From Eledone cirrhosa (lineage: Eukaryota), in the NCBI GenBank assembly GCA_964016885.1, contig OZ024741.1, forward strand, positions 111,786,001 through 111,850,000: a stretch of 64,000 nucleotides of DNA, given 5' to 3'. The position numbers and the translations under genes were made by a program. Below the pieces are notes generated by a model. That model was not told the origin of the DNA, did no database searches, and saw only the letters and a list, made by a program, of their open reading frames with translations. Shown piece after piece: positions 16,408-49,259 of this stretch. The number at the start of each line of letters is the position of its first letter. Position 1 is the stretch's first letter.

Positions 16408-16452
16408 GCTTACAATTGTTTCTTCCCAACCGAGGTTTGGAGTCTTCGGAGC
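16408..16452 (-). ncRNA. variant hammerhead (CCGANGA core)
   Basis: Reverse complement reads gct-CCGAAGA-ctccaa...ttgggaa-GAAA-caattgta-agc. Confidence 0.65.
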
Positions 16453-17920
16453 AATTTTTCAATGATTGTTTACATACTTGACCTCCTTTTCAACACAAGA
16501 GACATACAGAAACATATGTATATATTGATGCACAGTGGGTTGACATCCATTATAATATTTAAGCATGGCAGTTTAAAGATTAAAGTCATATTAAAAGAAA
16601 ATTACAACAAAATTAAAGTTATAATACAACATTGGCAGTCTATGAAAGTGATGCAGGAGGATAGTTAGAAGTAGTTAGTTACACGTGGGGCATGCACGTG
16701 TGTCCTCTTTATATAAGATTATAGTGCGGTAAGGTGTTATATGGAATATAAGCACTTTAAGCGGGCAATCAAGAGTATTATGGGGGTTGTATAGTATTTT
16801 ATATGTATGATATAGAAGCTTGTGTGCAGAGAAATATTTAAAGTATTAAGAATGAGAAGCAAATCAGTGTTATAGTTTTTCGTATACACCACCATTTTCA
16901 CAATCCAGGAAACGTAATATATAGATTATATGTCTTTCACATAATCTACGATGATTCAATATTGGATGCTTGATGAATAAGGTTGGAATATTACATCTTG
17001 ATGTTCTTTAATCCAATATTATATAGCAGGTTGTTTTTGTTACGAGGCTTAACATCGTATTATTTTCCGGAAGTGTGTGTGTGATTAAGGGGAGTTAATG
17101 CGTGAGGGGAGGTAACTAGCTGATTTCTATAACTAAAATATATTATCCTAATGTACATTAAATGGTGTCACACATGAGTCTCTATCATATAGGTTATAAA
17201 CAGTTTCTAAGTATAAGTATCCTATCTATAAATTACAGTCTAGTCTATTAAGAAGTACTAAAGGTGTTCATATTGGGATGATTACCCTCTATCATAAAGT
17301 GCCACAACTGAATATTCTACATGAAGAATCAGATCCCCAAATCAATGATCTTTGTAAGTGTAGTCTACCCGCAGAATCTGGCAGGGTTTTATTATAATCA
17401 CTTCTATATATAACTCCCGGTAAGCTCAGGGTCAATGCATGTCTGATTGCATGGCAAAGTTAAATATCACTAGGGTAGACCAGAGATTAATTCTCACTTA
17501 CAATTTCACCAATCTGACCATCAAGTCATATATGTATGTACAATTCATATATCACTTGCACATAATTCATTGTACCCAGCATAAAGGTTAAATATTTCTT
17601 TTATGTTAATAAATTAATTAATTAATCTTCCATGTATCCAATGATGGCACTCCATACACAGAACAACATTAGCACAACCCATTCAGTGTTTAAAGTTTAC
17701 ATTAATTATATAGTGGTGTAATGTAGTCTAAGTAATTGAAGGCAATTATACCAAAAGCAGATGTACATGGAGATATCTCTAGGGTAAAAGGTTCTAGAAG
17801 GAATTCACTATTTGTGTTAATGTGGATCATTGAGTGTGGAGATGTGGTGTAAGGTGTGCCCTTGAGGTTTGTTGCTAGAGGTGGTGACGGTTTCAAGTCT
17901 GACATTGTTATATATTGGGT

Positions 17921-19389
17921 TTAAAGTTTGGGAAGGAGTGTTGGAAGCGGTGCTGGCAAGACGCGAATACTTCTGATTTTTTTATTAAGGAGGTTACGGT
18001 TTGAGAAGATAATAGTATGGGTCTCTAGTAGACAGAGGTTACAAAATTTATTAGGTGGTTTGTACGATGTCGCGTTACCTATCACTTCCCATTTAAGTGT
18101 ATAAGATATATTTTTAGTTTTTAGATAGTGTATGTAGCTAGATAGTGAAGTGGAGTTGGCTAGACTGTGTTTTTTGAAAGAATGGAGGTGCGAATTGTAT
18201 CCAGTTTTGAAGCAGTTTGAAGTAGAGCCTATATAGGTTTCAGAAGAGTTGCTAGTTGTGACGGTGCATGAGTATATATCCTTGATTAAGCATTTTTTAT
18301 CTAAAGGGCAGGTTCTATTTGATCTACAGTTACAATTATTCTGGGTGTTAGTCTGCCGGTTATTAGTCTGCCGGTTAGTCTGCCGGTTATTATGTTGTGT
18401 AGAAGTCCGGATGGTAGCTATAGGATTATGGTTATGGGGGTTGATGTTCCCAGCGTTATTACTTACACTAGTGCTATTTCTATTATTACTATTGTTATTA
18501 GGGTTAGTTGATATAATGTTATTATGAAGGTTTATCGACTGTTGAGATTTAGTTTGTTGGAAGTAAGAATTAATTTTTCTTTTATTGCTACGAGCTATGT
18601 GGTATGCTAAGTTAGGCGTAGTAGAGTAGGAGATTTTAACGGTGTTTTTGTTTAAAAGGCTATGGTACTTGTGGCCAGATGGGGAGTTTTTATCTAGGAG
18701 TGAGAAGAAAGCTCTAGGTAGGTTGGTAGATACGTTTAGATTGAAAGGAGGGTTGAACAATGTATTATTTCTTCTTCTATTTTTGTTTTTTATGCCTGTT
18801 GAGTTGTTTCCTTTTATGGTACTATGGTAATTTCTGTGGTGTGGGTTACTTTTGTTGGCATCTACCGTATTAGTGTGTGTGTGATTGCTATTCTTATTAC
18901 TAAATTTCCTCATGGACATATTGTGCGAAATAATATTGTAGCTATGTGTTTTTGTAGGAAGGAACACGATCTCTATATTATGGCCTGATCTAGCTAATGC
19001 CTGATTATAATATTGCGAGTTTTTGCTAACTATGTTTATGTCAATGATAGATTAGAGATTCTATTGGACACTCCCTTAGAGATAGAGTTTAATATTGATC
19101 TAGGGTGGTTAGACTTGGTATCTACGTAAATGAGTTTTTCGTTAGGTTTATGGAAACGTGTATATATCTTTGAGTCTAGGTAGAGGGTGGCGTCCAGGAA
19201 GTTAACGTTTTTAGTGTTTTTGTCCATGGTGATACTAAGGTTATAGTTTTTGAATGTCTTGTGCAATAGTTTTCTAGTTCTTTCTATATTGAATTTTTAT
19301 AGTCTATAAGTAGAAGTGCATCATCGCCGTACAAACCACCGTTGAGGTATGGAAGGTCCTTATGGATTTCGTTAAGTAAATATAGGCCG
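17921..19389 (-). pseudogene. PLE RT C-terminal half plus GIY-YIG endonuclease (frameshifted)
   Basis: GLYLLNE...GGLYGDDALL, VNFLDATL, HKPN....YVDTKSNHP, FNPPF, CNCR...CPL..KC, YIGST..CFK..YNSH and CNLCLLE. Homologous to ORF 29622-31463. Confidence 0.9.
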
Positions 19390-19730
19390 TATTTGAACAG
19401 AACTTTGATTCATGTAATTTCTATATAACTGCTCTGTAGAACAACTGATGTTATTACATTGAGCTATTTATCTTACTGGTAATAAGGTAGTAATAAATTA
19501 CTGTCTTTCACTGTTTAGGGTTTAAAATATATATAACTATAAAAGGTTTTACTGTATACATAGCCATAAATAGTATCCTTAATACTATATATATATATAT
19601 ATATATATATGTATATATGTGTGTATATGTGTGTGTGTGTGTGTGTGTGTATAAGAATAGGCTTGAATGATTGCATATGTAAGCGCGTGTGTGGGTGGGC
19701 ATATATGTGTGTGTATATATATATATATAT

Positions 19731-47090: not shown

Positions 47091-47394
47091 ATGTATATAT
47101 ATATATATATATATATATATATATATATATATATATATATATATATATGTGTGTGTGTGTGTGTGCGTGTGTGTGTGTAGATTACACAAGTATCAAAGTC
47201 ATGTTTAAAACATTTAATTGCTGACAATTGTTTCTTCCAAACTTAATCTTGGAGTCCTCGGAGCATTATCAATGTTTGTACATATAATTAACCTCCTATT
47301 CAACTGAAGAAACATACTAACTACAAACTAACTACAAATCATACTAACTACAAACCCTAATAGCAATAGTAATAATAGTAATAACACTAATGAA

Positions 47395-47925
47395 ATGAAT
47401 AACATTAGGAACGACAACCATCATAGCCCTAATACTAACCATAGCAACCAGACCTCTACACAACATAATAACCGGCAAGATAACATCCAAAATAAATGTA
47501 ACTCTAGATCAAATAGAACTTGCCCTTTAGGTAATAACTGCTTAATCAAAGACATCATTTACTCCTGCACGGTCAACACTAACAACTCTTCTAAAACATA
47601 TATAGGCTCTACTTCGAACTGCTTCAAGACGAGATATAACTCGCACCTCCTCTCTTTCAAAAAACACAATCTAGCCAACTCCACTTCACTATCTAGCTAC
47701 ATACACTATCTGAAAACTAGGAATAGAACATATACACTTCAATGGGAAGTAATAGGTAGGGCTGCATCGTATAAACCACCTAATAAATTTTGTAACCTCT
47801 GTCTCCTAGAGACCCATACTATAATCTTTTCGAATCTTAACCTCCTAAATAAAAAATCGGAAGTGTTTGCATCGTGCCAACACCGCTTCCGACACTCATT
47901 CCATAGCTTTAAACCTAGTATATAA
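47395..47925 (+). pseudogene. PLE GIY-YIG endonuclease domain (5'-truncated ORF)
   Basis: CPLGNNCL..IIYSC...YIGST..CFKTRYNSH...CNLCLLE...LLNKKSE..CQH. Confidence 0.9.
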
Positions 47926-49214
47926 CAATGTCAGATTTGAACTCATCACCACCATTAGCACTTCACCTCTAAGACTTGCCTTCCACCGCTCCATCACACT
48001 CTTTGATCCACCGTTTCCTCTACACAAATCATTCTTATCTCTAACATTATACTCTAGAAATATTCTTATAGTCACCACCTTTTAATATAATTACTTTAGA
48101 TTACTTATAATTATATAGTGATTGAAATATAATATAATATATATAAACTTTAAATGTTAAATGTAACAATGAATTATATATACATTTATAATTAAATGTA
48201 TAAATTAATAACATTGTATATAAAGGATTAATTTATTAACATAAGCGATTTATCTAACTTAAATGTAATATGGAACAATGAATTATATATACATTTATAA
48301 TTTATAATTAAATGTATAAATTAATAACATTGTTTATAAAGTATTAATTTATTTTCTTAGGGATGTATCTAATTTATCATGCTAACAGCTATACGTTATT
48401 TCATATCTTGCCAAATATTGGGTAGACAACAATCTAATGAAACCTTTAATATATTATGAGAGAGTAGACTGTATATGAAATTAAATATAAATATATAACT
48501 TTTATATAAGGGATTCAATTATGGCACTATATAATGTCTATTAGAGCAAGGAATTTAATTATTATAATGAGCTAGTTACCTACCCTTACGCATTAGCTCC
48601 CCTTAATTCCATATCCACTTCCGGATATTAAACCGTTGAAAATTCTCGTAGTAGAACAACTCTAAATCTATTAATATGAATACAATAACACCAAGTTACA
48701 ATCCATTAATATAACAAACATTCAATACAAATATAACTTAACATATGTAATGGGTGTGAAATCTGTAACTTTCATATTCTACACACATAAAAATGTGAAC
48801 TATACAGAAAATATCATCGCATTGCATCCCCCATAATACACTAACATATTCGCTTAAAGTGCTTGTATTTTATGTAATACCTTGCCATACAGTACTCATA
48901 TATGCATAATACATTTGCTTGTTCCATTCCTTTATATATGACTAACGTATGTACTATCTCTTTAATTATTAGATTATTCTCTTGTATTATCTGTCGCATG
49001 TATTCCACCCTGTGCTTTTAATTTTAATTTTAATTTTTAGTTTTTAATTGTAATTTTAAGCTTAATTTGAATTATTATAAAATTCTCGTATAATATATGT
49101 CGCATCCATTCCACCCTGTAAACATGAAACTGTTGTCCACAACATCAATATATATGTATCTCTATGATTCTTCAGTTGAATAGGAGATTAATTATATGTA
49201 CAAACATTGATAAT

Positions 49215-49259
49215 GCTCCGAGGACTCCAAGCTTAAGTTTGGAAGAAACAATTGTCAGT
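49215..49259 (+). ncRNA. variant hammerhead (CCGANGA core; mirror copy at 47220-47264, minus)
   Basis: gct-CCGAGGA-ctccaagc(ttaa)gtttggaa-GAAA-caattgtc-agt. Confidence 0.65.

Follow-up and report, generated by a model that had tools for sequence, protein, structure and literature searches.

A window of 64,000 nucleotides from Eledone cirrhosa (assembly GCA_964016885.1, contig OZ024741.1, positions 111,786,001 to 111,850,000 of the forward strand) was found to carry five copies of a type I hammerhead ribozyme motif, which we assign to the pseudo-long terminal repeats (pLTRs) of a Penelope-like element (PLE) and in which core position 4 is C instead of the canonical U (C4; core CCGANGA). C4 is the inherited state of this family and not a product of decay, and the C4-containing core as a whole is under purifying selection; a preference for C over U at position 4, on the other hand, is not established by our tests. 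The reading that we favor, with a probability of about 0.6, is that C4 replaced U in the ancestor of the clade, was inherited by some 10,000 copies, and belongs to a pLTR hammerhead that is likely working but weak and is predicted to cut the tandem RNA of the element.

C4 is the inherited state of the family

The five window copies, 75 to 96% identical, form one family and represent three insertions, each of them arranged head to head and bordered by microsatellites on both sides. The motif consists of GCT, the core, one base, an 18-nt hairpin (stem-loop II), one base, GAAA, stem III, TC or TA, and AGC. Stem III is a six-base palindrome-like word resembling CAATTG, and stem I is kept as GCT/AGC in all five copies (AGT at 49257), as the initial annotation of this DNA had stated. 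The heptamers named in that annotation were all located in the window (CCGAAGA, CCGATGA, TCGATGA, CCGAGGA twice, and CCGACGA), with the correction that its minus-strand coordinates correspond roughly to the end of stem I and not to the core. CYGANGA was counted 70 times within the window, whereas 100 shuffled sequences gave 28.0 ± 5.0. The family copies and the truncated elements to which they belong are the following.

49176..49306 (+): type I hammerhead of the 3' pLTR with extended stem I; core CCGAGGA at 49218-49224, GAAA, stem III CAATTG; predicted cut after 49256
47177..47303 (-): inverted 5' pLTR stub of the same insertion as the 49218 motif; core CCGAGGA at 47255-47261; predicted cut after 47223
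47340..49449 (+): body of truncated copy C, with endonuclease, long 3' untranslated region (UTR), hammerhead, and tail, between microsatellites
47332..47925 (+): end of a 5'-truncated open reading frame (ORF), GIY-YIG endonuclease with CxCX5C linker, CxxC, and CxH motifs; stop ~1.3 kb upstream of the 49218 hammerhead
16361..16494 (-): hammerhead of copy A; core CCGAAGA at 16443-16449; predicted cut after 16411; stem II with one mismatch
16332..19388 (-): truncated copy A, with part of the reverse transcriptase (RT), endonuclease (ORF 17921-19051), and 3' UTR
19392..19588 (+): inverted stub of copy A, starting 3' of the hammerhead
34487..34616 (+): decayed hammerhead stub; core CCGATGA at 34528-34534; G12 changed to A
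34085..34215 (-): decayed inverted partner of the 34528 stub; core TCGATGA at 34170-34176; C3U in this arm only

Two of the five cores have decayed. The 34528 copy, listed earlier as a family variant, has lost G12 (G12A, with AAAA at that place). In its partner the heptamer TCGATGA is indeed present, but the change responsible (C3U at 34176) is confined to one arm of the inverted pair and marks decay rather than a kept variant. A second departure from the hammerhead consensus had been overlooked, namely that positions 10.1/11.1 are a free pair. Five copies from three insertions cannot tell selection from shared ancestry. C4 could simply reflect decay, or a chance event in a recent founder whose motif was already dead or relaxed, and a single founder could account for all five copies, two of which carry core decay. 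A genome-wide analysis was therefore needed.

In the 3.0-Gb genome, exact counts in one fixed context (TGCT-core-N-TCCAA) amounted to 7,311 for CCGA, 258 for CTGA, 166 for CCAA, and 52 for TCGA, while A4 and G4 together, in a context shorter by one base, reached 95. A wider pattern with stem II left free matched 9,385 C4 and 474 U4 copies, and 8,131 matches were obtained when the pattern ignored the core, 90 C4 and 10 U4 copies being counted by hand among the first 100. The genome-wide consensus at position 4, a check proposed in the initial annotation, is therefore C4 and not CUGA. The C4-G5 dinucleotide is a CpG, and both its transitions were 3 to 5 times above the non-CpG transition of C3; decay therefore drives C4 toward the canonical base. 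When paired arms had U4 in at least one arm, 8 of the 13 pairs were discordant, one with U4/A5 (the loci were partly chosen for U4). G5A was shared by both arms in 2 of 63 pairs, the direct repeats of a full-length copy described below (L122) included.

For the analysis of selection, 191 independent insertions were kept (247 hits at 220 places, 29 partner arms dropped). The searches that yielded them mostly left position 4 free; three loci had been picked by hand among the U4 loci, and the two oldest groups were deliberately sampled more densely. Loci chosen for T4, which distorted the first tree, were excluded from the final trees. Some searches fixed GAAA, stem III, and the cut-site letters, so that constancy there was favored; C3 to A9 were left free in the core-blind and protein-selected sets. 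Position 4, a U in the type I consensus, was C in 160 of the 191 copies, a sample that over-represents U4-rich groups. The type I core bases C3, G5, A6, G8, A9, G12, A13, A14, A15.1, and U16.1 were each present in 182 to 191 copies, and H17 was A in 107, C in 82, T in 2, and G in none.

Eleven subfamilies of at least four copies, comprising 154 of the 191 insertions, were then compared (mean distance 0.26, maximum 0.37). C4 was found in 10 of them. Only 1 of the 11 core columns varied between subfamilies (position 4, in one subfamily), versus 68 of the 117 non-core columns. The ten other core columns did not change, while N7 was A, U, or G, in agreement with the free variation noted earlier, H17 was A or C, and 10.1/11.1 and the stems changed as well. 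On the tree, changes on shared branches versus tips numbered 2 versus 39 in the ten core columns and 219 versus 485 elsewhere (Fisher P = 1.3e-4). Since the ten other core bases are constant across subfamilies, the C4-containing core as a whole is under purifying selection. The initial annotation had called C4 a selected U4C variant rather than decay. The second half of this claim agrees with the 9,385 C4 versus 474 U4 copies and with the 10 of 11 subfamilies; the first half holds for the whole core (0 of 10 other columns versus 68 of 117) but is not shown for C over U. Decay or a founder accident is very improbable and largely refuted, because C4 spans lineages with endonucleases ~63% identical and pLTRs as much as 37% divergent, the other core bases being constant throughout, and because CpG decay leads to U4, not from it.

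Coding constraint on C4 was ruled out: the variation had no codon phase (5/6/6 of 14), and all three frames are closed between the hammerhead and the ATG. The hammerhead site is non-coding, lying ~1.3 to 1.5 kb past the ORF stop and ~270 nt ahead of the next ATG.

The family has the type I architecture, in which three helices surround the core and stem I is open. Its structure was assessed in 25 representative rows, in which 84.5% of 843 cells were paired, compared with 31 to 44% in slid controls; stem I was paired in 93% and stem II in 86.5%. A-U pairs of stem II were replaced by G-C in 7 of the 25 rows, and stem III remained a palindrome through changes in both halves (CAATTG, CAGCTG). Its word is fully or almost fully self-complementary (duplex -3.4 to -10.0 kcal/mol) and within the monomer has a pair probability of 0.10 or less. 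Single-copy folds recovered the extended stem I in two of five family copies. Stem I continues through three more helices with internal loops and ends near the insertion ends, 35 to 49 nt past the predicted cut. The combinations at 10.1/11.1 were A.G, C.A, C.U, U.U, and U-A, with pairing in 8 of the 25 rows, all of them U-A; the G10.1-C11.1 pair of the type I consensus was missing, G standing at 10.1 in 2 of the 191 copies. Positions 10.1 and 10.2 of the family alignment had 21 and 25 tip changes, versus 1 to 9 in neighboring stem columns (first tree, loci chosen for T4 included). The Rfam hammerhead model matched neither 49170-49320 nor the canonical U4 relative at 33650-33790, and no hammerhead was among the matches listed (150 of 354) in an Rfam scan of the window. 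A PDB sequence search and a metagenome pattern scan gave 0 matches each.

A Hydra-clade Penelope-like retrotransposon

The earlier attribution of the copies to a PLE family is well supported: judged by motifs, the copies are pLTR hammerheads of a Hydra-clade PLE, to which the pLTRs and the GIY-YIG ORF correspond as well. In the proteins P0001 and P0002, RT-type motifs recognized by eye (FDI, TMGS, YRDD) are followed by the endonuclease, and the Hydra-type motifs RVRWR, HADKT, CNCRSNRTC (CxCX5C), CNLC (CxxC), and CQH (CxH) are present. Pfam gave no RT hit, and the Pfam GIY-YIG match to the ORF end was weak (E = 0.0046, below its cut-off). Protein relatives numbered 293 at E ≤ 0.001, some with PF00078 or with the name "predicted GIY-YIG superfamily endonuclease"; the best named one, from Argonauta hians, was 38% identical. 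RWR stands in the element protein where the Hydra clade is described with RWK (PMC8557442).

A genome search with the 47332-47925 endonuclease protein recovered full-length relatives. One full-length copy, L122, contains direct repeats of 495 nt that are 99% identical; their hammerheads, separated by 4,146 nt, flank a frameshifted ORF whose ATG lies ~270 nt downstream of the upstream core. Both direct pLTRs of L122, at 2854 and 7000 (-), carry G5A, which suggests insertion from a template with a dead core or homogenization of the repeats. Further Hydra-type traits were found, namely pLTRs, inverted 5'-truncated copies, a tail, and (TA)n insertion. Insertions end at microsatellites, and 70 of the 77 copies reaching a microsatellite (153 scored) end 35 to 49 nt past the predicted cut site. 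Two sequences of the family alignment resemble splice donors, namely GTCAAG/GTTAAT, which follows AGGAG ~30 to 35 nt upstream of the core, and GTAAG/GTCAG, which spans the cut site; introns are possible in the pLTRs of PLEs.

A related element served as comparator.

29622..31547 (-): related RT-endonuclease ORF (48% identical), flanked by canonical CTGATGA at 27429-27435(-) and 33694-33700(+)

The CTGATGA hammerheads of this Hydra-type element have the same spacing and stand in a long, near-perfect inverted arrangement. Also seen in the window were a more distant GIY-YIG endonuclease fragment (~36% identical) at 7044-7544(+), within an 842-nt inverted repeat, and, by eye from the ORF list, a frameshifted element of the LINE (long interspersed nuclear element) type at 54048-57369(+), with endonuclease-like and RT-like frames. 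Candidate hammerheads of other repeat families (CTGANGA followed by GAAA) lie at 21841(-), 49813(-)/49953(+), 5564(-), 26313(-)/26938(+), 46079(-)/46503(-)/46784(+), and 9988(+)/42149(-)/45749(-).

Position 4 and the activity of the motif

Tests of a preference for C over U at position 4 gave P values of about 0.03 to 0.20 and do not establish it. Outside a 33-copy old clade, position 4 had 13 tip changes and no shared one (158 copies); in free columns the mean number of shared changes is 3.5 (P0 = 0.03), but only 1.6 when transitions alone are counted (P0 = 0.20). The oldest-looking subfamily (stem III CGATCG, U.U at 10.1/11.1) comprised 15 CTG, 13 CCG, and 4 CCA copies (n = 32), and its U4 exceeded the prediction from its other CpGs (11/22 versus 7/44, P = 0.007); another old group had CTG in 10 of 36. 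No clean U4 clade was recovered within the oldest subfamily in the tree (28 copies, low support). Genome-wide, U4 copies exceeded those with the CpG-partner change G5A (258 versus 166). At positions 4-5, C-to-T changes outnumbered G-to-A changes 21 to 5, while other CpGs were symmetric (11 versus 14); some U4 templates therefore probably spread. Such an asymmetry would arise if the motif tolerated U4 but not A5. In the endonuclease tree, the U4 relative (29622-31547) fell outside a group of two branches ~63% identical, both of which hold C4-majority families and are joined at a weakly supported node (35.8). Old-group loci were mostly too short to place by protein, an endonuclease being available from L370 and L288 only. 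The data are most simply explained by a single early change from U to C, after which U continued to be tolerated.

C4 is not confined to this family. The CCGACGA that the initial annotation had attributed to a different family does belong to a second type I family.

44445..44532 (-): second-family type I hammerhead; core CCGACGA at 44522-44528, stem II ~65 nt, stem I GTGT/ACAC

The 44522 context had 815 genomic matches, of which the first 100 were 81 CCG, 13 CTG, and 6 CCA by hand count, and C4 is the state of this family too. Its link to an ORF is not firm. Related motifs with a long stem II at 21205(+) and 42542-42548(-) read CTGAGGA (U4), which makes an independent origin of C4 in the 44522 family likely.

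It is conceivable, if unlikely in our estimation, that C4 is favored over U4 as a latch that keeps the monomer inactive by pairing with the 3' strand of stem III (C4-G16.2, G5.U, A6-U), to be opened by a second copy or by the element protein. RNAalifold proposed the helix between C4-G5-A6 and stem III unprompted. In the models, this helix was 2.0 to 2.5 kcal/mol stronger with C4 than with U4 in 10 of the 11 subfamilies, and in 9 of those 10 its pair probability was 0.22 to 0.61 with C4 and at most 0.01 with U4, but one subfamily stayed at 0.03 even with C4. The U4-rich subfamily has CGATCG, which allows a G5-C pair and would reduce the need for C4, and the second C4 family shares the CAATTG stem III. 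However, the A6-U pair is broken in the young CAGCTG subfamily, and U4 relatives sharing TTG exist (21205, 42548). No shared C-to-U change was found among the 158 copies despite the mutable CpG, but this constancy reaches only P = 0.20 on transitions. C4 and G16.2 showed no covariation, and the alignment cannot test the pair. If the latch were real, two families in one genome would have converged independently on a detuned self-latching hammerhead, in which C4 holds the lone copy off and the tandem transcript or the element protein switches it on; doubtful as this is, it would mean that abundant animal hammerheads are invisible to CUGANGA-based searches.

We prefer the reading of an inherited C4 in a weak but likely working hammerhead. 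Two motifs would pair through the palindromic stem III, allowing a cut in the tandem RNA of the element. Position 4 would require a pyrimidine, with U tolerated, and the ribozyme would be slowed by C4 together with the unpaired 10.1/11.1. Low or protein-assisted cutting may suffice for the element, a weak, dimer- or protein-dependent ribozyme trimming its tandem transcripts. Most U4 copies would have arisen by CpG deamination after insertion, and some from U4 templates in the oldest lineages.

Several observations weigh against this reading. Two weakening features coincide, namely C4 and the loss of G10.1-C11.1, and pairwise mutants in the CUGA region of another hammerhead had low activity in all cases except the C3-G8 swap (PMC9901934). 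The shuffle control for pair counts is lenient for related sequences, and two of five measures did not exceed shuffles. A strict need for the ribozyme in cis is at odds with the 2 of 63 paired arms that share G5A, which imply that dead-core templates are insertable or that arms were homogenized. The microsatellite-reaching copies end mostly beyond the cut site, not at it. Finally, hammerhead mutants of a Poseidon element had no effect on insertion in vitro, and none of the reads ended at the cut site (PMC11167929).

Alternatively, the motif may no longer cut and may be a folded RNA signal bound by the element protein, with reverse transcription starting ~40 nt downstream and the letters kept for shape or binding. 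We hold this to be quite unlikely. It would account for the coinciding departures from the consensus, for the insertion of G5A templates, and for insertions ending where the extended stem I ends, and uncut RNA was the dominant substrate in the Poseidon work (PMC11167929). Against it, conservation falls on precisely the letters of the catalytic set, N7 is variable, and the palindrome of stem III persists despite sequence changes. Moreover, H17 toggles between C and A only, with 2 T and no G among the 191 copies, as the NUH rule of hammerhead cleavage predicts.

Comparison with known hammerheads

The role of hammerheads in PLEs may be a needed, a regulatory, or a parasitic one. The present clade kept all other catalytic bases over deep divergence despite two features expected to slow cutting; its natural C4 and U4 versions, together with a canonical relative in the same genome, are therefore a natural test of how little activity suffices for an element. 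Families of 10,000 copies escape descriptors that require CUGANGA and G10.1-C11.1. That the base change was already known makes the finding less surprising.

That U4 is normally highly conserved, as the initial annotation had it, is overstated, given a natural U4C viroid hammerhead (PMC3088659) and the use of a CYGANGA descriptor (PMC13481778). The viroid hammerhead has the same core change as the E. cirrhosa family; its activity in vitro is lower, and viroid infectivity is still permitted (PMC3088659, citing Ambros and Flores 1998). U10.1-U11.1 also occurs in natural hammerheads (PMC3088659). The viroid U4C is, however, a sequence variant in a plant viroid, whereas here it is the inherited state of a whole clade of an animal retrotransposon with a weak stem III. 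Hammerheads of deep-sea RNA viromes, found with the CYGANGA descriptor, likewise show C/T degeneracy at position 4 among 1,305 motifs (PMC13481778); these are viral contigs, and the descriptor demands G10.1-C11.1, a pair that the retroelement family lacks.

U4C is thus a known tolerated natural variant, while the literature searched does not describe it as fixed throughout a clade of animal retroelements. Nor did that literature, which mostly excluded subscription papers and bioRxiv supplements, yield an animal PLE with a fixed CCGA core; the main text of a 2026 retrozyme preprint contains no CCGA or CUGA string, and the CCGA core was not found in those parts of the text and those supplement files of PMC4209133 that were searched. 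In a Poseidon-type element, cleavage occurred only with protein and was dispensable for insertion in vitro (PMC11167929).

The PLE minimal hammerheads (Cervera and de la Pena 2014, PMC4209133) resemble the E. cirrhosa motif in their pLTR site, high within-genome diversity, opposite-strand pairs, and unstable palindromic helix III, for which action as a dimer was predicted, and their activity in vitro is low. They differ in having a U3-A8 core variant and a highly conserved G10.1-C11.1, compared with C4 and no such pair here. The Hydra-clade PLEs (Craig et al. 2021, PMC8557442) share the C-terminal GIY-YIG ORF with RWK-like, DKT, CxCX5C, CxxC, and CxH motifs, the (TA)n targets, and, close to the 3' end, a type I hammerhead whose stem III is a short palindrome. 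That clade commonly has U.U at 10.1/11.1, whereas the E. cirrhosa family has A.G, C.A, C.U, U-A, and U.U. All 26 rows of File S2 for the Hydra clade start with ctga, which the descriptor may have demanded, in contrast to C4 in ~10,000 copies here.

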